Sequence record: MT446387.1
DNA from: Escherichia phage TH09
Reading direction: 5' to 3' (one strand)
Length of the DNA: 64,000 bases
The notes below the pieces were generated by a model. That model was not told where the DNA came from. It worked only from the letters and a program-made list of their open reading frames with translations, and searched no databases. The position numbers and the translations under genes are program-made. Positions 3,540 through 51,215 of this stretch are shown piece by piece (the stretch's first letter is position 1; each line of letters opens with the position of its first letter).

Positions 3540-4655
3540 TTATACTTCTCTAAATTCTTGCCCAAACACTTTACCAGTTTTAGACGATGCTTGCGTAGGA
3601 AGTACCATTATATCCGGAGGTGAAGCAGATTCACAGATATAATTAACACGAATGCCATTGACGCCAAATTCAGCAGGTTTCGAAATACCTCCATTTCTTG
3701 ACACTTCAGAAAAGCTTAAATTTCGCATACCGCCTTGTCCCGCTTGAGCAGTTCTCTGTGCATATATCGTAAATCCGACAGCGTTTTCTGGAACAACCAC
3801 ATAATCTTCTTTTAATTCCCAAGAACCAGCTTGCCCGGTAAACTCAGCTTGTGTCGAGGAAATATATCCATTCGATGCGTTATAAAAACGGATAGATATA
3901 TTTGTAGTTCCAAGCGCAAGTAAATCGGCATCAGCATATAACTGTGCTTTGAGATAAAGAACATCGCCAGGAATTAAATTATAGTCAGATAATTTACTTA
4001 TGGCAGCTGAAGTTGGTAGACGTGCAATTTCGTTATTAGTTCCTCCAACCGCCGACATAAATTGCTCAACGCTTTCGTATGTTCTTTTAGGAAATCCTGT
4101 GGCTCCAACGTCCTCTAAACTGTCAAATACAACATCTAAAATAGTTTGATAATCATCTGTGCTTTTTCTATTACTTAGTTTAACATGTTCTAATGCAATA
4201 GCTCTTTTAGAAGAAGTATAAAAGGCAGCATATGATACGTCAAATCTTGACAATAAAGAATCAGATGGAAAAGCAGACGTTCCTGCGGTTCTTAACCAAG
4301 ATACTACTTCAGGAGGAAAATTAACCTTTCCGCTAGTTAATATAGCAACAAGTCTATTATTCGCCAAAGAATTCATGAAACTAACAAAAGCAGCTGATGT
4401 AGTATCATTTGAAGTAGAAAAAGCATATGACTTACTATCAACTAATGCTCCGGTGGAAGGGTCAAAAACTCTTAGATGAAGACCTGCGCTAAATGTTTGA
4501 CTTCCAACAGGATTATCCTGAAATTTAACGTATGGTCCTGCAGTAGAAAGCGGGCAAGAACCCGCTATACTTATTTTGTATCTTACTGAATTACTTTCCG
4601 ATAAAAATGGCGTTTGGACATATCCTTGTCCAAACTCTGCCATAAATTTTTCCAT
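3540..4655 (-). CDS. 35: Long tail fibre hinge protein gp35 (371 aa)
   Basis: ORF track; ATG verified; size as T4 gp35 (372 aa); synteny. Confidence 0.9.
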   Translation of the reverse strand: MEKFMAEFGQGYVQTPFLSESNSVRYKISIAGSCPLSTAGPYVKFQDNPVGSQTFSAGLHLRVFDPSTGALVDSKSYAFSTSNDTTSAAFVSFMNSLANNRLVAILTSGKVNFPPEVVSWLRTAGTSAFPSDSLLSRFDVSYAAFYTSSKRAIALEHVKLSNRKSTDDYQTILDVVFDSLEDVGATGFPKRTYESVEQFMSAVGGTNNEIARLPTSAAISKLSDYNLIPGDVLYLKAQLYADADLLALGTTNISIRFYNASNGYISSTQAEFTGQAGSWELKEDYVVVPENAVGFTIYAQRTAQAGQGGMRNLSFSEVSRNGGISKPAEFGVNGIRVNYICESASPPDIMVLPTQASSKTGKVFGQEFREV

Positions 4656-19716: not shown

Positions 19717-21304
<1,588 letters not shown>

Positions 21305-22739: not shown

Positions 22740-23960
<1,221 letters not shown>

Positions 23961-23961
<1 letters not shown>

Positions 23962-27868: not shown

Positions 27869-28045
27869 ATGGCAAAACAAGCTAAAGCAAAGAAAGCAGT
27901 TGAAAAGAAAGTTGGTGATTCTAAACGCGCTGGTTACAAGCGTGGGTCGAACTCTCGTATCAATCAAACTGTTGAGAAGATCATGCGCCGAGCACGTGCG
28001 GTTCTTCGAGATGATGCTTCTCGTTTTGGTAAGCAGAAAGCATAA
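27869..28045 (+). CDS. Small basic protein (58 aa; alternative ATG 27827 gives 72 aa)
   Basis: Lys/Arg-rich MAKQAKAKKAVEKKVGDSKRAGYKRG...; followed by a strong terminator. Confidence 0.5.
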   Translation: MAKQAKAKKAVEKKVGDSKRAGYKRGSNSRINQTVEKIMRRARAVLRDDASRFGKQKA

Positions 28046-28050
28046 GTTGA

Positions 28051-28074
28051 GGACTCCTTCGGGAGTCCTTTTTT
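28051..28074 (+). terminator. Intrinsic terminator
   Basis: GGACUCC-UUCG-GGAGUCC followed by UUUUUU. Confidence 0.85.
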
Positions 28075-28098
28075 ATTTTCCAAAGATTGCACAAAGTT

Positions 28099-28147
28099 GT
28101 TTACAGTATGATTCCTTTGTGATAGTATTATCTTACACAAACAAAGG
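28099..28147 (+). promoter_or_regulatory. Early promoter cassette with inverted repeat
   Basis: GTTTAC -35; inverted repeat CCTTTGT(28114-20)/ACAAAGG(28141-47) with -10 TAGTAT in the loop; right arm overlaps SD AAGGAG; leader ends AGGAGAATAAAATG. Confidence 0.55.
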
Positions 28148-28155
28148 AGAATAAA

Positions 28156-28488
28156 ATGAAAACGATTAATCTGAACGCTGCAGTTAAAACTAAATGCTTC
28201 AATGGTAAATATGATGAAACTATGTGGTTCTTAATGGCAGTTGAAGGTGATATCATTGAAGTAGAAACAGCAGAAGGTATGGGAACAGATTTCACCTTTA
28301 CAATTCAAGTTCATAATTTCTTTACTGGTTGGATTTATGAATTGAATACAGTAATCGTTGGAAAAATTGAACAAAATGAATTGGGTGAATGGTATTATGT
28401 TACAGCTCGCCAACGTGCCGAACGCTTAATTGAGAAGATGAAAAAAGTTGGTAAACTTGACATGCAGCACTGGAAAGTAGTAAAATAA
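28156..28488 (+). CDS. Hypothetical protein (110 aa)
   Basis: ORF track; strong SD. Confidence 0.6.
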   Translation: MKTINLNAAVKTKCFNGKYDETMWFLMAVEGDIIEVETAEGMGTDFTFTIQVHNFFTGWIYELNTVIVGKIEQNELGEWYYVTARQRAERLIEKMKKVGKLDMQHWKVVK

Positions 28489-28490
28489 TT

Positions 28491-28530
28491 GTTTACTTTG
28501 GTACAGGATATGATATTATATACCTGTACC
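28491..28530 (+). promoter_or_regulatory. Early promoter cassette with inverted repeat
   Basis: GTTTAC -35; inverted repeat GGTACAGG(28500-07)/CCTGTACC(28523-30) with -10 TATTAT in the loop; leader ends AGGAGAATAAAAATG. Confidence 0.55.
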
Positions 28531-28556
28531 GCAATTAAACATCTAGGAGAATAAAA

Positions 28557-28922
28557 ATGAACTACATCAACTTTGAACGTAAATATGTTTCTAACGGTAT
28601 TGCAGGTTCTATTGATACTATCTGCCTTTGGAAACATCAAAATGGATCAGTATGCGAAATTGAACAGTATATGACTCCTAACTACGTTTATATACGATTT
28701 GAAAATGGCATTACGGTTTCAATCACGAAAGAAGGTTCTTCTTTTAAAATCGCATTAGATGATGATTTCCGTCAACGTGATTTAGGGACTCATCCTTGCT
28801 GGAATGGCGTTAATCGTAAGCTTCTGGTTAAAACTTGGATTCGTCATATTCTGAGTAATAGAGCTAAACCTGAGCATCTTGAAGCGATCTTTGATGTAGT
28901 TCTTAACGAATTTGATATTTAA
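28557..28922 (+). CDS. Hypothetical protein (121 aa)
   Basis: ORF track; strong SD. Confidence 0.6.
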   Translation: MNYINFERKYVSNGIAGSIDTICLWKHQNGSVCEIEQYMTPNYVYIRFENGITVSITKEGSSFKIALDDDFRQRDLGTHPCWNGVNRKLLVKTWIRHILSNRAKPEHLEAIFDVVLNEFDI

Positions 28923-28962
28923 AATAAAACAGGGGCTTCGGCCCCTTACTGAGGAAAATACT

Positions 28963-29250
28963 ATGTTTATGACTACTTATTTTGATAGCCGCAAAAATTT
29001 CTGTGAAGTGGTTTTCTCTAAGGCGCCTAAAGACCTTCCTGCTCATTTGCAACCTACCAGTGAATCGATTAAAAACTACGTTAATGTAGTCTGCCCTTTA
29101 GAATTCCGTACTGTAAATGGGCGCGATACTTTAGCTATCACTAAACTCAATCGTGAAATTGACATTGACCCTTCAATTGCGCGTGAAATTAACATTTCTG
29201 ATATTGGCGGCGGTAATGTTAAATCGCACGGTTTTCAGATGAGGTTCTAA
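28963..29250 (+). CDS. Hypothetical protein (95 aa)
   Basis: ATG 28963 with SD gagga (track start 28912 is TTG); preceded by hairpin GGGGC-uucg-GCCCC at 28933-28946. Confidence 0.55.
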   Translation: MFMTTYFDSRKNFCEVVFSKAPKDLPAHLQPTSESIKNYVNVVCPLEFRTVNGRDTLAITKLNREIDIDPSIAREINISDIGGGNVKSHGFQMRF

Positions 29251-29447
29251 TGAAATTCTTTTTAGGTCAAACTGTTGAATTAAAGGGAGTTGGTATACCT
29301 GGATTAATTTCTAAGGTTCTACCTCCATTTAAATGGAGTGGTATTCAAATAAAAGAGGCTTATATTGTTTCCTGGGTAGATGGAAATGAAGACCTTCGTA
29401 TGGGTGATGAATTATCTCCTATTTACGGATTAAAGGAATTAGTATGA
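29250..29447 (+). CDS. Hypothetical protein (65 aa)
   Basis: ORF track. Confidence 0.5.
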   Translation: MKFFLGQTVELKGVGIPGLISKVLPPFKWSGIQIKEAYIVSWVDGNEDLRMGDELSPIYGLKELV

Positions 29448-29650
29448 ATATAATTAATAAGATTTTTGGAATTCAGTACATTAAGGTCACATATAAAGTA
29501 ACAGATAAAAATCCATATACTGATGAACATGAAGAACCACAAGTTAAGTCTATTATATTAGAAAAGGACCCTAACTGGCCAGTTGAATTTCGTCTTCCTT
29601 GCTATGGTCATTGGGCTGATGTTGAAATTATAAGCATTGAAAATGTCTGA
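29444..29650 (+). CDS. Hypothetical protein (68 aa)
   Basis: ORF track. Confidence 0.5.
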   Translation: MNIINKIFGIQYIKVTYKVTDKNPYTDEHEEPQVKSIILEKDPNWPVEFRLPCYGHWADVEIISIENV

Positions 29651-30101
29651 GTTAGAGATTAGAAGCAATTTTAGGTGGCCATCATGTGCATTAAGTAATT
29701 TCGCCCAATGGCCTTTCGTCATGGATGGTATTCAATTTGGAGGTCTCGAAGGATTCCTCCAAGGGTGTAAGGTGAAAAATGTTGAACACCAACGTCGTAT
29801 ATTTGGATTATCCGATCTTGCCGCCCAACAAGCTGGAAGGTCTTATGCAAGAGCTCAGGACCGTGGCACGTTGTTCTGGCTTGGAGTTCCGTTTTCAAGA
29901 TATTCACCGGCGTGGAAAGAATTATACACAAATGCATATTTTGAAGCAGCGTTCCAAAACAAGGGCTTTCGCGATGCATTACTAGCCTCGAAAGGAAAAG
30001 TTTTGAAGCACAGCATGGCTAGTGGTCTAACAAAAGATGATACAATACTAACCGAAGCTGAATTTATTGATGTGTTAAACCTATTAAGAGACTCTCTATG
30101 A
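29643..30101 (+). CDS. YbiA/NADAR-like (DUF1768-like) protein (152 aa)
   Basis: ALSNFAQWPF...DG..F...EGFLQGCK, LAAQQAGRS and W...AYFEAAFQNKGFRDALLASKG resemble motifs I recall from E. coli YbiA; ATG 29643 (track start 29637 is TTG). Confidence 0.45.
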   Translation: MSELEIRSNFRWPSCALSNFAQWPFVMDGIQFGGLEGFLQGCKVKNVEHQRRIFGLSDLAAQQAGRSYARAQDRGTLFWLGVPFSRYSPAWKELYTNAYFEAAFQNKGFRDALLASKGKVLKHSMASGLTKDDTILTEAEFIDVLNLLRDSL

Positions 30102-30934
30102 AGCCTACTATTTTAACTGATATTGATGGAGTATGTTTAAGCTGGCAATCAGGACTTCCTTATTTTGCCCAGAAATATAATCTTCCGTTGGAACATATTT
30201 TAAAAATGATCCAAGATGAGAAATTTATTTCTCCAGGTAAACTTTTTAATTGTGATGAAGAACTTGGCGTCAAGTTAATTGAAAAATACAATCGTTCAGA
30301 TTTTATTCGTTACTTGTCTCCATATAAAGATGCCCTGTGTGTAATTAACAAATTAAAAGAAGATTATAATTTTGTAGCTGTTACAGCATTGGGTGATTCT
30401 ATTGACGCTCTGCTGAATCGTCAATTTAATTTGAATGCTCTTTTTCCTGGTGCCTTCTCAGAAGTATTGATGTGTGGTCATGATTCTTCAAAAGAAGAGT
30501 TGTTCAAAAAGGCAAAAGAGAAATATAACGTAATTTGTTATATTGACGATCTCGCTCACCATTGCGATCACGCGAGTGAAATATTAAATGTTCCTGTTTA
30601 TTGGATGGCTCGAGGGGAGCGTGACAGTATTCCAAAAACTGCACAGCGAGTTTATACATGGAATGATGTCGAGAATAAGCTTTTTCCATCGAAGGAAAAT
30701 AAAGAAAGTTTTGATAGTGAAAAAGTTATAAAAGATGTAATTGAGAAGATGATCAAAAACGATTCTTTTCCTTGGAACACTACCTGGAGAACTCCTGGAT
30801 TTAATCCTTATAATCCATATCATCCATATCAGACACATCCGTTTCAGACATGGAACTATATTAAACCTGGTGGCATAGAGTATTTGTATAATAGACCTAC
30901 TAGTGGTGATAATATTTTTCAAGGAGCATTTTAA
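30098..30934 (+). CDS. HAD-superfamily phosphatase-like protein (278 aa)
   Basis: N-terminal HAD motif I LTDIDGV; Pro/Tyr/His-rich C-terminal tail. Confidence 0.55.
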   Translation: MKPTILTDIDGVCLSWQSGLPYFAQKYNLPLEHILKMIQDEKFISPGKLFNCDEELGVKLIEKYNRSDFIRYLSPYKDALCVINKLKEDYNFVAVTALGDSIDALLNRQFNLNALFPGAFSEVLMCGHDSSKEELFKKAKEKYNVICYIDDLAHHCDHASEILNVPVYWMARGERDSIPKTAQRVYTWNDVENKLFPSKENKESFDSEKVIKDVIEKMIKNDSFPWNTTWRTPGFNPYNPYHPYQTHPFQTWNYIKPGGIEYLYNRPTSGDNIFQGAF

Positions 30935-31203
30935 TGTTTGTTGTTCATACTATTTATGAAAATGAAGGTAATACTACACGTGATTACGGTCACGTAAATC
31001 AATTTTTTAGATGCAATCCAGAATTCCGAGCTCAAAAAGACGAACGAATTTTTAAAAAATGTGTAGAGCAAGGTTTCATTTACGTCAAGCACTGGATGCA
31101 AGGAAATAAAGTTAGAACCACGTACCACAGGTCTTTGACTGAGCTTAATGATGAATTGATTTATAATAGAGCTGTAAACCAAACTCTAAAGGATGAACAA
31201 TGA
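30934..31203 (+). CDS. Hypothetical protein (89 aa)
   Basis: ORF track; ATGA overlaps. Confidence 0.5.
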   Translation: MFVVHTIYENEGNTTRDYGHVNQFFRCNPEFRAQKDERIFKKCVEQGFIYVKHWMQGNKVRTTYHRSLTELNDELIYNRAVNQTLKDEQ

Positions 31204-32663
31204 TTCTTAAAATTCTGAACGAAATAGCATCTATTGGTTCAACTAAGCAGAAGCAAGCAATTCTTGAAAAGAACAAAGATAATGAATTGCTTAAACGAGT
31301 ATATCGTCTGACTTATTCTCGTGGGTTACAGTATTATATCAAGAAATGGCCTAAACCGGGTATTGCTACCCAGAGTTTTGGAATGTTGACTCTTACCGAT
31401 ATGCTTGACTTCATTGAATTCACGTTAGCTACTCGGAAATTGACTGGAAATGCGGCAATTGAGGAATTAATTGGATATATCACCGATGGTAAAAAAGATG
31501 ATGTTGAAGTTTTGCGTCGAGTGATGATGCGAGACCTTGAATGCGGTGCTTCAGTATCTATTGCAAACAAAGTTTGGCCAGGTTTAATTCCTGAACAACC
31601 TCAAATGCTTGCAAGTTCTTATGATGAAAAAGGCATTAATAAGAATATCAAATTTCCAGCTTTTGCCCAGTTAAAAGCTGATGGAGCTCGGTGCTTTGCT
31701 GAAGTCAGAGGTGATGAATTAGATGATGTTCGTCTTTTATCACGAGCTGGTAATGAATATCTAGGATTAGATCTTCTTAAGGAAGAGTTAATTAAAATGA
31801 CCGCTGAAGCCCGCCAGATTCATCCAGAAGGTGTGTTAATTGATGGCGAATTGGTATACCATGAGCAAGTTAAAAAGGAGCCAGAAGGCCTAGATTTTCT
31901 TTTTAATGCTTATCCTGAAATTAGTAAAGCTAAAGAATTCGCCGAAGTAGCTGAATCACGTACTGCTTCTAATGGAATCGCTAATAAATCTTTAAAGGGA
32001 ACCATTTCCGAAAAAGAAGCACAATGCATGAAGTTTCAGGTCTGGGATTATGTTCCATTAGTAGAAATATATGGTCTTCCTGCATTTCGTTTAAAGTATG
32101 ATGTACGTTTTTCTAAACTAGAACAAATGACATCAGGCTATGATAAAGTAATTTTAATTGAAAACCAGGTAGTAAATAACCTAGATGAAGCTAAGGTAAT
32201 TTACAAAAAGTATATTGATCAAGGTCTTGAAGGTATTATTCTCAAAAACGTTGATGGGTTATGGGAAAATGCCCGTTCAAAAAATCTCTATAAATTTAAA
32301 GAAGTAATTGATGTTGATTTAAAAATTGTAGGAATTTATCCTCACCGTAAAGACCCTACTAAAGCAGGTGGATTTATTCTTGAGTCAGAGTGTGGAAAAA
32401 TTAAAGTAAATGCTGGTTCAGGCTTAAAAGATAAAGCCGGCGTAAAATCACATGAGCTTGACCGTACTCGCATTATGGAAAACCAAAATTATTATATTGG
32501 AAAAATTCTAGAGTGCGAATGCAACGGTTGGTTAAAATCTGATGGCCGCACTGATTACGTTAAATTATTTCTTCCGATTGCGATTCGTTTACGTGAAGAT
32601 AAAACTAAAGCTAATACATTCGAGGATGTATTTGGTGATTTTCATGAGGTAACTGGTCTATGA
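31200..32663 (+). CDS. 30: ATP-dependent DNA ligase (487 aa)
   Basis: Matches T4 DNA ligase from MILKILNEIASIGSTKQKQAILEKNKDNELLKRVYRL onward; adenylation lysine context QLKADGARC. Confidence 0.97.
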   Translation: MILKILNEIASIGSTKQKQAILEKNKDNELLKRVYRLTYSRGLQYYIKKWPKPGIATQSFGMLTLTDMLDFIEFTLATRKLTGNAAIEELIGYITDGKKDDVEVLRRVMMRDLECGASVSIANKVWPGLIPEQPQMLASSYDEKGINKNIKFPAFAQLKADGARCFAEVRGDELDDVRLLSRAGNEYLGLDLLKEELIKMTAEARQIHPEGVLIDGELVYHEQVKKEPEGLDFLFNAYPEISKAKEFAEVAESRTASNGIANKSLKGTISEKEAQCMKFQVWDYVPLVEIYGLPAFRLKYDVRFSKLEQMTSGYDKVILIENQVVNNLDEAKVIYKKYIDQGLEGIILKNVDGLWENARSKNLYKFKEVIDVDLKIVGIYPHRKDPTKAGGFILESECGKIKVNAGSGLKDKAGVKSHELDRTRIMENQNYYIGKILECECNGWLKSDGRTDYVKLFLPIAIRLREDKTKANTFEDVFGDFHEVTGL

Positions 32664-32848
32664 AAGCTTACTTAGAAACAATTGTCATTGCTCAAAAAGA
32701 AGGTGGAGATGTTTCTACTTCTGTATCACAAGTCATTCTCGAATTTGTAGATGCATACGCTTATAATAAATTTACAGAAACATTTGATGCCTATGAAAAA
32801 GGACCAAAGTTTGAAATATATCGTACTCTCTTACCACTAGATTACTAA
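32660..32848 (+). CDS. Hypothetical protein (62 aa)
   Basis: ORF track; ATGA overlap with the ligase stop. Confidence 0.5.
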   Translation: MKAYLETIVIAQKEGGDVSTSVSQVILEFVDAYAYNKFTETFDAYEKGPKFEIYRTLLPLDY

Positions 32849-32864
32849 AGGCCTTCGGGCCTTT
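32847..32864 (+). terminator. Terminator-like hairpin
   Basis: AAAGGCC-uucg-GGCCUUU followed by AAUUUU. Confidence 0.55.
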
Positions 32865-32869
32865 AATTT

Positions 32870-32877: not shown

Positions 32878-32900
32878 GAATAAACACTAGAGAGGCTATG

Positions 32901-34994
32901 ATGGAACTTATTACAGAATTATTTGACGAAGATACTACTCTTCCGATTACAAACTTAAATCCAAAGAAGAAAATACCGCAAATTTTTTCAGTTCACGTTG
33001 ATGATGCAATTGAACAGCCAGGCTTTCGTTTATGCACCTATACATCTGGAGGTGATACTAATCGCGATTTAAAGATGGGCGATAAAATGATGCATATTGT
33101 TCCTTTTACATTAACTGCTAAAGGTTCAATTGCTAAATTAAAAGGTCTTGGTCCAAGCCCAATTAATTATATCAATTCAGTTTTTACTGTTGCAATGCAA
33201 ACTATGCGTCAGTATAAAATTGATGCCTGTATGCTCCGTATTCTTAAGTCTAAAACCGCTGGTCAAGCTCGACAAATTCAAGTTATTGCTGATAGACTTA
33301 TCCGTAGTCGTTCAGGTGGTAGATACGTCCTTCTTAAGGAACTCTGGGATTACGATAAAAAGTATGCATATATTCTTATACATCGCAAAAATGTATCACT
33401 AGAAGACATTCCAGGAGTTCCGGAAATTAGTACCGAGCTCTTTACTAAAGTTGAATCAAAGGTCGGTGATGTTTATATCAATAAAGATACTGGAGCTCAA
33501 GTAACTAAAAATGAGGCAATTGCTGCATCTATTGCGCAAGAAAACGATAAACGTTCTGACCAAGCTGTAATCGTTAAAGTTAAAATTTCCCGTAGAGCAA
33601 TTGCACAAAGTCAATCATTAGAATCTTCTAGATTTGAAAGTGAATTATTCCAAAAGTATGAATCTACCGCAGCTAATTTCAATAAACCTGCTACGGCTCC
33701 TTTAATTCCCGAAGCAGAAGAAATGAAGCTTGGAATTAATTCATTAGCTTCTAAAACTAAAGCAGCAAAAATCATTGCCGAAGGAACTGCAGATGAACTT
33801 CATTATGACTATAAATTCTTTTCAAAAAGTGAGGTTAATGAAGTTTCTGAAAAAATTAAAGATGTAATTCTTAATGCGATTAAAAATGAACCAACTACTT
33901 CAATAAAATGTTTAGAGAAATACGCAGCAGCTGTAAATCAATTCTTTGAAGATTATAAAGATAAATGGCTTGCTAATCATAATAAAAATCGTAAAGGACA
34001 ACCAGATGAAGTCTGGGAAGAAATAACTAAAAATTCCTGGAACGCAGCAAAAACTAAATTCCTCAAACGAATGATTTACAGTTTTTCTGGAATTGGTGCT
34101 GGTCCAATGATTGATATTACTATTGCCCGCGATGGTTCTAAATATACTCCATCACAAAAGCGTGGCATTAGAGAATATTGCGGTTCAGGATATACTGACA
34201 TCAATAATCTTCTTTTAGGTCGTTACAATCCAGAACGATATGATGTAATGAGTGAAAAAGAAATTGAATCTGCTATAAATAACTTAGATTCAGCTTTTGA
34301 AAATGGTGACCGCATACCGGAAGGCATCACAGTTTATCGTGCTCAAAGTATGACTGCTCCTATATACGAAGCACTAGTTAAAAATAAAGTGTTCTATTTC
34401 AGAAATTTTGTATCTACTTCTTTAACTCCTATCATTTTTGGACGTTTTGGAATTACACATGCTGGTATTGGTCTTTTAGAACCAGAAGCTCGTAATGAAT
34501 TGACAGTTGATAAAAATGAAGAAGGAATAACTATTAATCCAAACGAAATAAGAGCGTATAAAGAAAATCCTGAATACGTTAAAGTTCAAATAGGATGGGC
34601 AATTGATGGAGCTCATAAAGTTAATGTTGTATATCCAGGAAGTCTCGGAATAGCAACAGAAGCTGAAGTTATTCTACCGCGCGGATTGATGGTCAAAGTT
34701 AATAAAATAACTGATGCTTCTAATAATGACGGAACCACGTCTAATAATACAAAACTCATTCAAGCTGAAGTTATGACCACGGAAGAGCTCACCGAATCGG
34801 TAATCTATGATGGAGACCATTTAATGGAAACCGGCGAAGTAGTTGCAATGACAGGTGATATTGAAATAGAAGACAGAGTTGACTTTGCATCATTTGTTTC
34901 ATCAAATGTTAAACAAAAAGTAGAATCATCTCTTGGAATTATTGCGTCTTGCATAGATATTACAAACATGCCTTACAAGTTCGTTCAAGGATAA
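32901..34994 (+). CDS. alt: Alt-like mono-ADP-ribosyltransferase, copy 1 (697 aa)
   Basis: N-terminus MELITELFDEDTTLPITNLNPKKKIPQIF; R-S-E type ART motifs VYRAQ, FVSTSL, EAEVIL; conserved C-terminal DGDHLMETGEV; I recognise the family but not which copy is T4 alt. Confidence 0.8.
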   Translation: MELITELFDEDTTLPITNLNPKKKIPQIFSVHVDDAIEQPGFRLCTYTSGGDTNRDLKMGDKMMHIVPFTLTAKGSIAKLKGLGPSPINYINSVFTVAMQTMRQYKIDACMLRILKSKTAGQARQIQVIADRLIRSRSGGRYVLLKELWDYDKKYAYILIHRKNVSLEDIPGVPEISTELFTKVESKVGDVYINKDTGAQVTKNEAIAASIAQENDKRSDQAVIVKVKISRRAIAQSQSLESSRFESELFQKYESTAANFNKPATAPLIPEAEEMKLGINSLASKTKAAKIIAEGTADELHYDYKFFSKSEVNEVSEKIKDVILNAIKNEPTTSIKCLEKYAAAVNQFFEDYKDKWLANHNKNRKGQPDEVWEEITKNSWNAAKTKFLKRMIYSFSGIGAGPMIDITIARDGSKYTPSQKRGIREYCGSGYTDINNLLLGRYNPERYDVMSEKEIESAINNLDSAFENGDRIPEGITVYRAQSMTAPIYEALVKNKVFYFRNFVSTSLTPIIFGRFGITHAGIGLLEPEARNELTVDKNEEGITINPNEIRAYKENPEYVKVQIGWAIDGAHKVNVVYPGSLGIATEAEVILPRGLMVKVNKITDASNNDGTTSNNTKLIQAEVMTTEELTESVIYDGDHLMETGEVVAMTGDIEIEDRVDFASFVSSNVKQKVESSLGIIASCIDITNMPYKFVQG

Positions 34995-34997
34995 ATC

Positions 34998-37055
34998 ATG
35001 GAACTTATTACAGAATTATTTGACGGCGCTTCGGCGCCGGTTGTTAACTTAAATCCTAAGCATAAAATACCGCAAATTTTTGCTATTCAAGCCGGCGAAG
35101 AAAGTGTGCTTCCTGGATTTAGATTTTGTACATACACCTCTGGCGGTGATACAAATAAAAACGTTAAGCCAGGCGATAAAATGATGCATATCGTAATGAT
35201 AGGTGTCAATGAGAAACTATCGCTCGTTAAACTTAAAAACTTGGGTGGAAATCCAATTGGTGTCATTAATGCGGTTTTTGATACTGCTCTTCAAACAATG
35301 AAACAGTATAAAATTGATGCATGCTTATTCCGCGTACTAAAGAGTAAAACAAATGGCGCAGCTCGTCAAATGCAAGTTATTGCTGACCGTTTAGTACGTA
35401 CTAAAGGAGCAGGTCGATATGCTCTTTTAAAGGAAATCTGGGATTACGATAAAAAGTATGCATATATTATGGTTTACCGTAAAAATGCCAATTTAGAAGA
35501 CATTCCAGGTGTACCTCCTATTTCAACTGAGTTATTCACAAAAGTTGAATCAAAGGTTGGTGATGTTTATGTAGACGTTAAAACAGGTAATGCTGTTCCT
35601 AAAGCTGTTGCTGTTGCTGCTTCTATTGCCTTAGAAAATGATAAGCGCACGGATCAAGCTGTTATTCAGAAAACTAAAATTAGTCGTCGATTAGCAGCAC
35701 AAGCTCAATATTCTACTGTTGATGCTTCACTTCAGGGTGATAGCTTCGCTGCTAAGAAATATCAAGAGTTTGAATCTAAAGTTCCGGTATATAAAGCAGA
35801 AGGACCAATGAACTCCGGGGTTATCCAGATTGGTTCAAACTTTAACAAAGGAGCTATCGGTGGTATGAGAAGTGCTTCTCGTTTTAAATCTAATGATTAT
35901 GAACTAGAAAGTTTCCGAAATCATATTGCATTAGCCCATGCGCGTTTACGTGATCCATCTATCAAGTTGCAGAGCGATATAACATATCAAGGTTCTCAAG
36001 AATATTTAAAGAATAAAGAATTCTTTGATTATAAAACTGATAAAATTTTAAGCGATCTTGCTGACATTAATATTTCTAATAGCTTTGATGTTATTAAGAA
36101 AATTATCAATGATTTAGTTAAAGGTTCTAAAGCTACACCAGATGAAAAGACAGCTATTATTCAATTTGTCATGAATGGCATTTATAAATTGATTAATGAA
36201 TCTGCCGCTCAGGCATATGAATACGCGAGCACCGAAGTAACTCCAAAAGGATTAACTCAAGCTGAATCTGATGTAATTGAAGATTATTGTGCAGATTCAT
36301 ATGTTGAAATGAACTCGTTCCTTTTGGGTAAACCAGATTCTACCCGCGAAGAATATATGGAACGAGCTATTAAACATATTGAGACGCTTGATTCTGCATT
36401 CGCTAAAGGTTCAGTTCTTCCTCCAGGAACTACACTTTACCGTGGACAAGAAGTTACATTTAAAACTTTGCGTCATAACATTGAAAACAAAATGTTCTAT
36501 TTCAAGAACTTCGTATCCACATCGCTTAAACCAAATATCTTCGGTGAGCATGGTAAAAACTATATGGCCTTAGATGATTCCGGCGCAGTATTTTCTGGTG
36601 AAGGAGAAGGTTCCGTTGATGCAGAAGATTTGATGCATATGGGTAGTCATTCTACATATGCTAGTGAAGATGCCGAAACTAGCGTGGGTATGGTAATTAA
36701 AGGAGCTGAGCGAATCAAAGTTATCGTTCCAGGTCATTTATCAGGATTTCCATCAGAAGCTGAAGTTATTCTACCACGTGGAATTTTACTGAAGATTAAT
36801 AAAGTAAGTACGTACTTTATGAAAGAAACTGCTTATAACAAGTATCTAATCGAAGGTACAATCGTTCCTCCTTCTGAACAATTAGAGGAATCAGTATATG
36901 ATGGCGACCATTTGATGGAAACTGGTGAAGTTCGTCCAATGACTGGATTTAATCAATTCCTTGTCGAAGAATCAAAAGAAGAGGAAAACGAAGTTTCTCA
37001 AATCTTAGCTTCTTTGGTTAACATTAACGGAATGTCTAAAAAGTTCAAAATGTAG
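34998..37055 (+). CDS. Alt-like mono-ADP-ribosyltransferase, copy 2 (685 aa), tandem paralog
   Basis: Same N-terminal 200 aa architecture as copy 1 (MELITELFDG...), diverged middle, same ART motifs LYRGQ, FVSTSL, EAEVIL and DGDHLMETGEV. Confidence 0.8.
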   Translation: MELITELFDGASAPVVNLNPKHKIPQIFAIQAGEESVLPGFRFCTYTSGGDTNKNVKPGDKMMHIVMIGVNEKLSLVKLKNLGGNPIGVINAVFDTALQTMKQYKIDACLFRVLKSKTNGAARQMQVIADRLVRTKGAGRYALLKEIWDYDKKYAYIMVYRKNANLEDIPGVPPISTELFTKVESKVGDVYVDVKTGNAVPKAVAVAASIALENDKRTDQAVIQKTKISRRLAAQAQYSTVDASLQGDSFAAKKYQEFESKVPVYKAEGPMNSGVIQIGSNFNKGAIGGMRSASRFKSNDYELESFRNHIALAHARLRDPSIKLQSDITYQGSQEYLKNKEFFDYKTDKILSDLADINISNSFDVIKKIINDLVKGSKATPDEKTAIIQFVMNGIYKLINESAAQAYEYASTEVTPKGLTQAESDVIEDYCADSYVEMNSFLLGKPDSTREEYMERAIKHIETLDSAFAKGSVLPPGTTLYRGQEVTFKTLRHNIENKMFYFKNFVSTSLKPNIFGEHGKNYMALDDSGAVFSGEGEGSVDAEDLMHMGSHSTYASEDAETSVGMVIKGAERIKVIVPGHLSGFPSEAEVILPRGILLKINKVSTYFMKETAYNKYLIEGTIVPPSEQLEESVYDGDHLMETGEVRPMTGFNQFLVEESKEEENEVSQILASLVNINGMSKKFKM

Positions 37056-50210: not shown

Positions 50211-51215
50211 ATGTTTAAAAAGTATAGCAGTCTTGAAAATCATTACAATTCTAAATTCATTGAAAAACTTTACAGTTTAGGATTGACTGGCGGCGAATGG
50301 GTAGCTCGTGAAAAGATTCATGGCACAAATTTCTCACTGATTATTGAACGCGATAAAGCAACTTGTGCTAAACGTACTGGACCGATTCTTCCTGCTGAAG
50401 ATTTCTTTGGGTATGAAATTATTCTAAAGAATTACGCTGATTCCATTAAAGCAGTACAAGATATTATGGAAACTTCGGCAGTTGTATCTTATCAAGTCTT
50501 CGGCGAATTCGCTGGACCTGGCATTCAGAAGAATGTCGATTATGGTGATAAAGATTTTTATGTATTTGACATTATTGTTACTACAGAAAGTGGTGATGTG
50601 ACTTATGTCGATGATTATATGATGGAATCATTCTGTAATACATTCAAATTTAAAATGGCTCCACTTTTGGGTCGTGGTAAATTTGAAGAACTTATTAAAT
50701 TGCCAAATGATTTAGATTCTGTCGTCCAGGATTATAATTTTACGGTAGACCACGCTGGATTAGTTGATGCAAATAAATGCGTTTGGAATGCTGAAGCAAA
50801 AGGCGAAGTATTTACTGCTGAAGGATATGTATTGAAACCTTGTTATCCTTCTTGGATGCCTAATGGTAATCGCGTAGCTATCAAATGCAAGAACTCTAAA
50901 TTTAGCGAAAAGAAAAAGTCTGATAAGCCTATTAAAGTTAAAGTTGAACTGTCAGAAGCTGATAACAAATTGCTGGGAATTTTAGCTTGCTACGTTACAC
51001 TGAATCGGGTAAATAACGTTATTTCTAAAATTGGCGAAATTGGTCCAAAAGATTTTGGAAAGGTGATGGGACTAACTGTTCAAGATATTTTGGAAGAAAC
51101 TTCTCGTGAAGGTATTACTTTAACTCAAGCGGATAATCCTTCCTTGATTAAGAAGGAATTAGTTAAAATGGTACAAGATGTACTTCGTCCGGCTTGGATT
51201 GAATTGGTAAGTTAA
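50211..51215 (+). CDS. rnlB: RNA ligase 2 (334 aa)
   Basis: Nucleotidyltransferase motif I KIHGTN; 334 aa as T4 Rnl2. Confidence 0.9.

Follow-up and report, generated by a model that had tools for sequence, protein, structure and literature searches.

Genes 30.3 and 30.2 of the T4-like phage genome analysed here very probably sit side by side through synteny, the former encoding AdfN, a NADAR enzyme that would erase DarT1 marks, and the latter a separate HAD phosphatase. The original prediction had combined the two proteins into one candidate counter-defence module. Its reading of each protein largely held up, whereas the module did not, since gene 30.2 is not depleted under DarTG1 selection and the pair is not consistently adjacent beyond close T-even relatives.

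The window, by which we mean the entire 64,000-nt stretch of DNA, is a Tequatrovirus (T4-like) genome, and comparison with T4 and with the protein families identifies the two ORFs as genes 30.3 and 30.2. Both were recovered on the + strand, ORF1 at 29643-30101 and ORF2 at 30098-30934. ORF1 encodes 152 aa from an ATG, or 154 aa from an in-frame TTG two codons upstream, and ORF2 encodes 278 aa; they share 4 nt (ATGA). The pair had been described as lying just upstream of DNA ligase, and both ORFs do precede it, with the nuance that gene 30.1 stands between ORF2 and the ligase gene and overlaps its neighbours at both junctions (TAATG and ATGA). The other neighbours that had been named, RnlA, PseT/Pnkp, two Alt-like ADP-ribosyltransferases and RnlB, were all located in the window. 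On the + strand no terminator-like site was found from 28070 to 32846, and genes 30.3 and 30.2 belong to a dense run of early genes, DNA ligase being the last, in which stop codons overlap the starts that follow.

28457..28486, + strand: best candidate for a sigma-70-like (early) promoter of the unit 30.7 through alt.1, a consensus match only (11/12)
29444..29650, + strand: gene 30.4, 68 aa (phrog_2042), directly upstream of adfN, whose start its stop overlaps by 8 nt
29643..30101, + strand: gene 30.3 (adfN, for anti-DarT factor NADAR), full-length allele of a minimal DNA ADP-ribosylglycohydrolase of 152 aa with the NADAR fold, 97% identical to T4 gp30.3
30098..30934, + strand: gene 30.2, 278-aa protein predicted to be a hydrolase of the HAD superfamily, with its core at residues 1-200, a helical C1 cap and a disordered tail at the C-terminus
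30934..31203, + strand: gene 30.1, DUF3045, 89 aa (Pfam PF11243, E 2.9e-64), between gene 30.2 and the ligase gene
31200..32663, + strand: gene 30, ATP-dependent DNA ligase (from the ORF and T4 annotation), a conserved neighbour of gene 30.2
32846..32865, + strand: intrinsic-terminator-like hairpin closing the unit after alt.1
20144-21304: RnlA
23053-23961: PseT/Pnkp
32898-34994 and 34998-37055: the two Alt-like ADP-ribosyltransferases
50211-51215: RnlB

ORF1 and ORF2 are not chance ORFs. Phage records contain about 1,450-1,500 homologues of each, and across the 1,292-nt segment 58 nucleotide differences from T4 yield just 12 amino-acid changes, indicating purifying selection on the ORF pair; gp30.2, like gp30.3, is 97% identical to its T4 counterpart. 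An internal out-of-frame ORF, 30.3′, is shortened in the window relative to T4, and was rejected as a real overlapping gene since it has a premature stop and 12 of 68 residues changed, whereas the adfN frame of the same DNA shows 4 changes. Among 79 gp30.2 loci, adfN lies within 6 kb in 31, and in these adfN still precedes 30.2, invariably on one strand and in many cases with codons that overlap, which is more than nothing.

ORF1 matches Pfam PF08010 (Phage_30_3) with an E of 4.8e-68 and 227.7 bits against a cutoff of 36. The window protein has no match at E<=1 to PF08719 (NADAR/DUF1768), because gp30.3 proteins form the separate family PF08010. The absence of a NADAR/YbiA profile hit, which the original prediction had counted as evidence against itself, therefore holds formally for PF08719, yet the protein has a Pfam family of its own, and one 41%-identical homologue (P0085) matches both PF08010 and PF08719 in precomputed annotation. 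None of 30.2, 30.3 and 30.4 is represented by an NCBIfam model. Matches to PDB sequences are likewise weak for both AdfN and gp30.2, which is why the analysis turned to structure prediction and fold search. The AF2 model of AdfN (pLDDT 92.4, pTM 0.88) has the alpha+beta YbiA/NADAR fold, in which small beta-hairpins flank the core helices, and retrieved three NADAR structures from the PDB as Foldseek ranks 1-3, namely YbiA 2b3w, PnNADAR 8bau and G. lovleyi NADAR 8bat, the latter two with probabilities of 0.98-1.00; the best was YbiA (E 4.8e-5, TM 0.69), and the fourth PDB match had a probability of 0.04. Consistently, the AdfN family profile found YbiA as its sole PDB sequence match (E 0.008), across the SNF...E..Q..K motif, while a single-sequence search placed YbiA at E 0.69, too weak to decide. 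The proposed NADAR/YbiA identity of the 152-aa ORF thus stands on its fold, its catalytic residues and the YbiA profile match.

The sequence segments on which that identity had been proposed are all present in ORF1, with SNFAQWP at residues 18-24, the spaced motif as D28-G29..F32...E36.F38.Q40..K43 and AAFQNKGFRDALLASKG at residues 102-118. Alignment also recovers the conserved catalytic residues E36, K43 and H123, of which E36 and K43 belong to the E-x-F/Y-x-Q-x-x-K motif that touches ADP-ribose in NADARs; the three are encoded as follows.

29748..29750, + strand: AdfN E36 codon, catalytic glutamate, invariant in 100 homologues and aligned with the Glu of YbiA SEHYFQ
29769..29771, + strand: AdfN K43 codon, catalytic or ADP-ribose-contacting lysine, kept in at least 90% of 100 homologues
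30009..30011, + strand: AdfN H123 codon, last-strand histidine typical of phage (gp30.3-type) NADARs, invariant in the family alignment

In the AdfN model H123 comes right after strand E120-122. The residue at this last-strand position is Glu in YbiA, Asp in DarG1-type enzymes and His in phage NADARs (PMC11125620, PMC12945103), and the combination of PF08010 with the last-strand His places the window protein in the phage NADAR (gp30.3) subfamily. Its C-terminal helix is intact, residues 138-152 being the same as in T4 and containing the predicted helix H138-151. The RB69 allele, which is truncated 15 residues early and lacks this helix, has reduced activity (PMC11825919).

The predicted reversal of DarT-type guanine ADP-ribosylation is experimentally established for T4 gp30.3/AdfN, to which the window protein is 97% identical over all 152 residues, with start and stop unchanged (PMC11825919, PMC11125620). 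T4 AdfN removes guanine-ADP-ribose from DNA in vitro and in vivo and neutralises DarTG1 (PMC11825919, PMC11125620). It de-ADP-ribosylates DarT1-modified DNA (PMC11825919), and in vitro it acts on guanine-ADPr and is inactive on thymine-ADPr (PMC11125620). Substitution E36A abolishes the activity of T4 AdfN in vitro and gives weaker rescue in vivo, K43A weakens the enzyme, and a T4 adfN deletion mutant loses DarTG1 resistance, which complementation restores (PMC11825919). The public T4 Tn-seq comparison of control and DarTG1 (Data S6) agrees, with 30.3 lost under DarTG1 (log2FC -7.25, q 0) and adfN neutral without it in LB and M9. The window allele also shares with T4 the overlapping junctions with 30.4 and 30.2, E36, K43 and H123, and the full-length C-terminal helix. 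It differs by five substitutions, Q49H, G58D, I104F, Q114L and I125M (T4 residue first), M125 being two residues from H123. From the 97% identity, the modelled fold and the intact E36/K43/H123, we infer that the window AdfN is a guanine-ADP-ribose glycohydrolase. It would cut the N-glycosidic bond between ADP-ribose and guanine N2 in DNA, and in this way would wipe host DarT1 marks off phage DNA and allow replication to proceed.

AdfN resembles both cellular and toxin-associated NADARs. With the DarG1/DarT1-associated NADAR antitoxins (Geobacter lovleyi NADAR, 8bat) and PnNADAR (8bau) it shares the fold and the Glu/Lys pair, and with DarG1-type NADARs guanine-N2-ADP-ribose hydrolysis, established on the phage side for T4 AdfN (PMC11825919, PMC11125620). 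Unlike DarG1, the phage protein is reduced to its catalytic core and lacks the additional N-terminal elements (PMC12945103), has a last-strand His in place of Asp (PMC11125620) and is an orphan with no partner toxin; T4 AdfN is also no substitute for DarG1 in uninfected cells (PMC11825919, PMC11125620). E. coli YbiA (2b3w, PF08719), with a described role in riboflavin-intermediate N-glycoside hydrolysis (PMC11125620, PMC9503650), is the best structural match and shares the SNFA.WP...E..Q..K motif, but is 18% identical and has Glu at the H123 position.

For gene 30.2, the predicted HAD identity of the 278-aa ORF holds at the level of fold and motif. The LTDIDGV segment lies at residues 6-12, the predicted structure has the Rossmannoid HAD core fold, and the second motif I Asp is a mark of phosphotransferases rather than dehalogenases. 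The motifs and the tail lie as follows.

30119..30133, + strand: HAD motif I, D8-I-D10-G-V12, nucleophile Asp and Asp+2 general acid/base, after strand E4-7; D8 and D10 invariant in 98 homologues
30383..30385, + strand: HAD motif II, Thr96, closing strand E91-96, present in 90% or more of 98 homologues and aligned with the corresponding Thr in motif II of mouse cdN
30491..30493, + strand: HAD motif III, Lys132, at the N-terminus of helix H133-142, invariant in 98 homologues
30545..30550, + strand: HAD motif IV, D150-D151, Mg2+-binding acidic pair where strand E145-150 ends, present in 90% or more of 98 homologues
30761..30931, + strand: aromatic/Pro/Asn-rich disordered tail (pLDDT 37-57), residues about 222-278, with GIEYLYNRPT at 259-268

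The tail is hypervariable among homologues, and GIEYLxxQPT recurs in 19 of 57 long ones. The protein falls below all Pfam HAD thresholds (best HAD_PNKP, E 0.18, with 12.4 bits where the cutoff is 27.6) and gave no NCBIfam match, and its HAD membership therefore rests on structure prediction and motif conservation. Within the family (n=98), 23 members match Pfam NT5C (PF06941) weakly and 23 match Hydrolase (PF00702) weakly; a remote member exceeds the NT5C gathering score, which the window protein does not reach. Against PDB sequences gp30.2 found cdN at E 0.99 as a single sequence and at E 0.09 as a family profile. Taken together, gene 30.2 is predicted to encode a separate enzyme, a HAD phosphatase that depends on Mg2+ and bears a helical C1 cap.

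Two groups of HAD enzymes offer the closest comparisons. Like cdN/mdN and their bacterial relatives (PF06941; 2jao, 2i7d, 4yih, 3bwv), gp30.2 has a HAD core with a helical C1 cap and DxDGVL.D(W/F).SGL around motif I. Three of its aromatics (W16 and Y64, invariant, and F43, in at least 90% of 98 homologues) align with F20, F46 and Y67 of mouse cdN, which we take to line the nucleoside pocket in cdN/mdN structures. In contrast to these enzymes, gp30.2 lies under the NT5C gathering score and carries about 80 additional residues as a disordered tail; identity is 17-20%, and other HAD-IA enzymes score almost equally. The second comparison is the 3′-phosphatase domain of T4 PseT (Pnkp; HAD_PNKP, 1ltq, 5uj0), an enzyme encoded 6 kb upstream in the same genome, to which gp30.2 has weak profile matches (E 0.18 for Pfam HAD_PNKP, E 0.0038 for phrog_415). 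The Pnkp phosphatase domain is capless and acts on polynucleotide 3′ ends, whereas gp30.2 lacks a kinase domain and carries a cap some 75 residues long. The protein is closest to the 5′(3′)-deoxyribonucleotidases and on that ground most likely dephosphorylates a nucleotide-like small molecule, although the substrate is uncertain.

What such an activity would serve can be framed in two ways. As an independent anti-defence or nucleotide-pool enzyme, gp30.2 would be a nucleotidase directed against an immune signal, a toxic analogue or an unwanted (deoxy)nucleotide pool, a role we see as possible though rather unlikely. The NT5C/cdN likeness, including W16, F43 and Y64, points this way, as do the large size of the family (1,259 clusters at 50% identity, E<=1e-3), the early position of the gene among many host-takeover functions and its dispensability in the laboratory host, which is typical of anti-defence genes (insertions at 72/72 TA sites in the T4 Tn-seq in LB, and neutral in M9). 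Against it, gene 30.2 has no phenotype in K-12 in LB, M9 or under DarTG1, "30.2" is absent from the main text of the Tn-seq paper, including its clinical-isolate hits, and the substrate is entirely inferred. Our literature search found no mention of gp30.2, and a query for T4-like HAD/deoxyribonucleotidase proteins gave genome announcements only. The partner domains of gp30.2-like fusion proteins (P0267, P0314, P0217, P0257) were uninformative, and the neighbours of the most distant homologues had no common theme (RNase H-like exonuclease, PD-(D/E)XK nuclease, patatin, fatty-acid synthesis genes). Alternatively, gp30.2 could work with DNA ligase, as an end-conditioning phosphatase (e.g. for 3′-phosphates) or by clearing by-product nucleotides for nick sealing. 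Across T4-like phages gene 30.2 appears to travel with the ligase gene rather than with adfN, a T4-type ATP-dependent ligase lying about 0-700 nt (one case 1.2 kb) from the gp30.2 homologue in 68 of 79 loci, and a functional partnership would explain why it stays there. The pairing also outlasts rearrangement, with ligase upstream rather than downstream in three loci (L074, L076, L077), upstream amid a different surrounding gene set in L168 and directly adjacent in L169, in a region that is otherwise plastic (30.1 in 24/79 loci, 30.4 in 13/79). However, T4-like genomes are strongly syntenic, making adjacency weak evidence, no ligase lies near the most distant gp30.2 homologues (L070-072, L079-086), and ligase is essential while 30.2 is fully dispensable in LB and M9. 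T4 already has the 3′-phosphatase PseT, and in the HAD superfamily a large C1 cap favours small-molecule over polymer substrates, all of which makes a role with ligase unlikely in our judgement.

The remaining alternatives concern AdfN and its partners. If NADAR and HAD formed one counter-defence module, gp30.2 would process the product of AdfN or enable AdfN, and would be the missing "additional T-even protein", which we regard as highly improbable. The ATGA overlap and predicted co-transcription would suit a module, as would the constant order and strand in the 31 of 79 gp30.2 loci, which include distant T4-like phages at about 45% identity. The two families also have a near-identical spread over phage host genera, although this is expected anyway of two ancestral Straboviridae genes. 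AdfN(T4) is moreover fully effective only during T-even infection, for which a missing phage factor has been proposed (PMC11825919). On the other side stands the Tn-seq, which covers a saturated T4 library on a single E. coli K-12 host carrying a single DarTG1 system on a plasmid. There, insertions in 30.3 were lost under DarTG1 and those in 30.2 were not depleted (log2FC -0.12, p 0.61, q 1.0, 71 TA sites), and on these data gp30.2 was rejected as the missing AdfN cofactor; a redundant or condition-specific part for 30.2 in DarTG1 resistance may exist. Gene order argues in the same direction. Only 22 of 80 adfN-family loci have gp30.2 within 6 kb and 58 do not, some 57 kb separate the two genes in at least nine T4-like genomes, among them that of Klebsiella phage UTI-K1, where adfN lies inside a tRNA cluster, and two distant phage lineages that have adfN homologues show none of gp30.2 within 5 kb. 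For DarTG1 the module model is largely refuted, and 30.3 and 30.2 would adjoin through shared T-even synteny rather than joint function.

The T-even dependence of AdfN could instead reflect the gene upstream. Only two T4 genes are significant in the DarTG1 Tn-seq, 30.3 and 30.4 (the latter with log2FC -1.79, q 0.014), and 30.4 lies directly upstream of T-even-type adfN in 27/27 metagenomic loci as well as in T4. If gp30.4, not the downstream HAD, were the true partner of AdfN and the missing "additional T-even protein", this would explain why AdfN(T4) works in T-even infection and not in uninfected cells or in T5/Bas25 infections. We hold this idea to be distinctly unlikely, and an ordinary alternative source of the 30.4 signal would be polarity, with transposon insertions there disturbing the translation of adfN. 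Very unlikely, too, is a different main substrate for AdfN, such as RNA guanine-ADPr, a soluble ADPr-derived signal or an Alt/Mod product. The two Alt-like ADP-ribosyltransferases lie 2.8 kb downstream of adfN, but Alt, ModA and ModB are generally described as modifying proteins rather than guanine, which counts against an Alt/Mod product. NADARs do also strip G-ADPr from RNA (PMC12945103), comparative genomics has argued that phage NADARs act on soluble ADPr derivatives and are expressed early with ADP-ribosyltransferases (PMC9503650), and AdfN(T4) fails to detoxify DarT1 in uninfected cells (PMC11825919, PMC11125620). Nevertheless, the genetics are specific to DarTG1, deletion sensitising the phage and complementation rescuing it (PMC11825919), and adfN is one of two DarTG1-conditional genes genome-wide and is otherwise neutral. 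These data favour AdfN as an eraser of DarT1 marks on DNA.

The adfN half of this finding is already known, its function having been published in 2023-2025, and the original prediction arrived at it from raw sequence. T4 gp30.3/AdfN is an orphan antitoxin-like NADAR by which phages erase DarT1 ADP-ribosylation of their own DNA. The phage of the window carries a full-length AdfN allele that, judged from its sequence, is presumably active, and it should resist DarTG1. The two points that remain are modest. gp30.2 is a conserved, dispensable and predicted HAD phosphatase, present in about 1,400 T4-like phage records, whose gene tends to stay beside that of the ligase. For the T-even dependence of AdfN, attention shifts from the downstream HAD to gene 30.4, upstream, as a candidate.

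The window is from a T4-like myovirus. At the DNA level, Yersinia phage phiD1 and Escherichia phage JLBYU31 are 98.3% identical to a 2.1-kb segment around ORF1 and ORF2; in all, 685 phage records match this segment, and almost all of them come from Tequatrovirus-type phages of Escherichia, Shigella or Yersinia. By comparison with the T4 reference annotation, the + strand gene order is 31, rIII, 30.9 to 30.1, 30 (DNA ligase), alt.1 and alt. The coordinates originally predicted for both ORFs are exact, and all of the quoted sequence motifs are found in them. The features discussed here are as follows.

28007-28023, 28049-28070 and 32846-32865, + strand, terminator-like hairpins, the sole ones on this strand here
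28457-28486, best promoter-like site
29444-29650, + strand, gene 30.4, 68 aa, ending 8 nt into adfN
29643-30101, + strand, gene 30.3 (ORF1, adfN), 152 aa, from the T4 annotation
29779-29985, + strand, ORF 30.3′, out of frame inside adfN
30098-30934, + strand, gene 30.2 (ORF2), 278 aa, from the T4 annotation
30761-30931, + strand, aromatic/Pro/Asn-rich disordered tail of gp30.2

Genes 30.3 and 30.2 overlap by four bases (ATGA), and the adjoining junctions overlap too (8 nt for 30.4/30.3, 1 nt for 30.2/30.1 and 4 nt for 30.1/30). Because no terminator-like site was found on the + strand from 28070 to 32846, genes 30.7 to alt.1 look like a single early transcription unit. Further out, RnlA, PseT, two Alt-like ADP-ribosyltransferases and RnlB are present as predicted. 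The two Alt-like genes are full length and in tandem (32898-34994 and 34998-37055, + strand; 698 and 685 aa), and both proteins match Pfam ADPrib_exo_Tox. In T4 a single alt gene is accompanied by short remnants, alt.-1 and alt.-2, an old partial duplication according to its annotation; TH09 seems to keep an intact duplicate.

Along its full length the ORF1 protein shares 97% identity with T4 gp30.3, and it matches Pfam PF08010 (Phage_30_3; E 4.8e-68). It does not match the Pfam NADAR/DUF1768 model, the outcome that the original prediction had named as refuting a NADAR assignment, because Pfam gives the phage proteins a family of their own. The assignment nevertheless stands on other evidence. 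E. coli YbiA is the sole PDB sequence found by a profile of 100 homologues (E 0.008), with an alignment spanning SNF...E..Q..K, and the only meaningful PDB fold matches of the AlphaFold model (pLDDT 92.4) are three NADAR structures, 2b3w, 8bau and 8bat. In the 100-homologue alignment, E36 and H123 never vary and K43 almost never does. The window allele is full length, keeps the C-terminal helix absent from the defective RB69 allele, and carries five substitutions relative to T4, none at catalytic residues. Judged by sequence and model, ORF1 is AdfN, the anti-DarT factor NADAR.

The bacterial defence DarTG1 acts through the DarT1 toxin, which puts ADP-ribose on guanine of phage DNA. The resistance determinant was mapped to T4 gene 30.3, renamed adfN; purified T4 AdfN strips ADP-ribose from DarT1-modified DNA, an activity abolished by E36A, and rescue is weakened by E36A, K43A and an RB69-type C-terminal truncation (PMC11825919). 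In a separate study the T4 protein was active on guanine-ADPr and not on thymine-ADPr (PMC11125620), and in a T4 transposon screen all adfN insertions were lost under DarTG1 (bioRxiv 10.1101/2025.11.20.689424). The anti-DarT half of the prediction is thus correct and already published. The methods of PMC11125620 give the T4 construct as "gp30.3; residues 1-208", whereas T4 gp30.3 has 152 aa; the discrepancy could come from a tag, from another accession or from an alternative start.

That ORF1 and ORF2 form a counter-defence module is not borne out. In the public T4 Tn-seq data (sheet "resampling_Control_vs_DarTG1"), significance is reached by just two genes, 30.3 (log2FC -7.25, q 0) and 30.4, and 30.2 is unchanged (log2FC -0.12, p 0.61, q 1.0; 71 TA sites). 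Gene 30.2 is also fully dispensable for T4 on E. coli K-12, with insertions at 72/72 sites, and its insertions are neutral in minimal medium. Linkage is weak: of 79 viral loci built around a gp30.2 homologue, 31 have an adfN homologue within 6 kb, in each case on the same strand and upstream, at distances from overlapping to 1 kb; of 80 loci built around an adfN homologue, just 22 have gp30.2 nearby. At least nine T4-like genomes carry both genes ~57 kb apart, and no gp30.2 neighbour accompanies the distant adfN homologues of large phages. Each family occurs in ~1,450-1,500 phage records with closely similar host-genus distributions, as expected of two ancestral Straboviridae genes, and this pattern therefore lends the module no support.

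AdfN(T4) is fully functional only in T-even infection, and an additional phage protein has been proposed as needed (PMC11825919). Given its Tn-seq profile under DarTG1, gp30.2 is effectively excluded from this role. Gene 30.4 is the sole significantly depleted gene besides adfN (log2FC -1.79, q 0.014), which the main text of the Tn-seq paper does not mention. A helper role for gp30.4 would fit this DarTG1-conditional depletion, its overlap with the adfN start, and its position immediately upstream of T-even-type adfN in 27/27 metagenomic loci and T4. A polar effect of the insertions on adfN translation explains the depletion more simply, and we regard the helper role as improbable.

The HAD call for ORF2 holds at the fold level. 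Its product shares 97% identity with T4 gp30.2 and belongs to phrog_420, of unknown function; no Pfam or NCBIfam model matches it above threshold. Aligning 98 homologues reveals the complete HAD catalytic set, with D8 and D10 (motif I) and K132 (motif III) invariant and T96 (motif II) and D150-D151 (motif IV) nearly so. In the AlphaFold model, which has high confidence over residues 1-200, every motif takes its canonical position; a helical C1 cap spans residues 14-88, and the last ~55 residues are disordered. Foldseek returned 128 PDB matches at E<=1e-3, the best 50 of which are all HAD-fold proteins, and the best target TM-scores among the matches listed belong to 5′(3′)-deoxyribonucleotidases. 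Pfam NT5C matches weakly in 23 of the 98 family members, and a remote relative, from the 1,259 clusters that an exhaustive profile search recovered at E<=1e-3, passes the NT5C cutoff. Residues W16 and Y64 (invariant) and F43 (>=90%) align with mouse cdN aromatic residues that presumably line the nucleoside pocket. We predict with high confidence a Mg2+-dependent phosphatase of HAD fold and chemistry; a nucleotide-like small molecule as its substrate is a low-confidence suggestion. The C-terminal tail is hypervariable, and ~40% of homologues lack it. Among 57 long homologues, 19 carry GIEYLxxQPT near the C-terminus (GIEYLYNRPT in the window, residues 259-268) and another 12 carry LRAYY; these motifs could be docking peptides for some partner.

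A T4-type ATP-dependent DNA ligase lies ~0-700 nt (1.2 kb in one case) from the gp30.2 homologue in 68/79 loci, and the adjacency, considered over window 30098-32663 and viral loci L008-L069, L073-L078 and L168-L170, survives inverted order or different surrounding genes. This hints at a functional link between gp30.2 and ligase, against which stand strong T4-like synteny, the dispensability of 30.2 and its capped architecture. One GenBank record names a gp30.2 homologue (P0190) "DNA ligase", probably an annotation slip due to this adjacency.

ORF 30.3′ has 68 aa in the window, ending at a premature stop, versus 75 aa annotated in T4, and 12/68 of its residues differ from T4, compared with only 4 changes in the adfN frame over the same DNA; the ORF appears free of constraint and probably does not represent a genuine gene. 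Five short proteins (P0014, P0015, P0016, P0063 and P0105) join a partial gp30.3 domain to another Pfam family (PF06919, PF11097, PF06019 or PF26911), and their sequences suggest natural deletions or fusions disrupting adfN in some T-even relatives. In Mosigvirus-type records the match covers gp30.3 residues 1-144 only, consistent with the published RB69 truncation. In Klebsiella phage UTI-K1 (L167, Jiaodavirus), an adfN homologue of 40% identity lies at 4001-4450 inside the tRNA gene cluster, where it overlaps the stop of a hypothetical gene of 185 aa, far from the ligase/30.2 region, indicating that adfN has moved from one plastic region to another in T4-like genomes.
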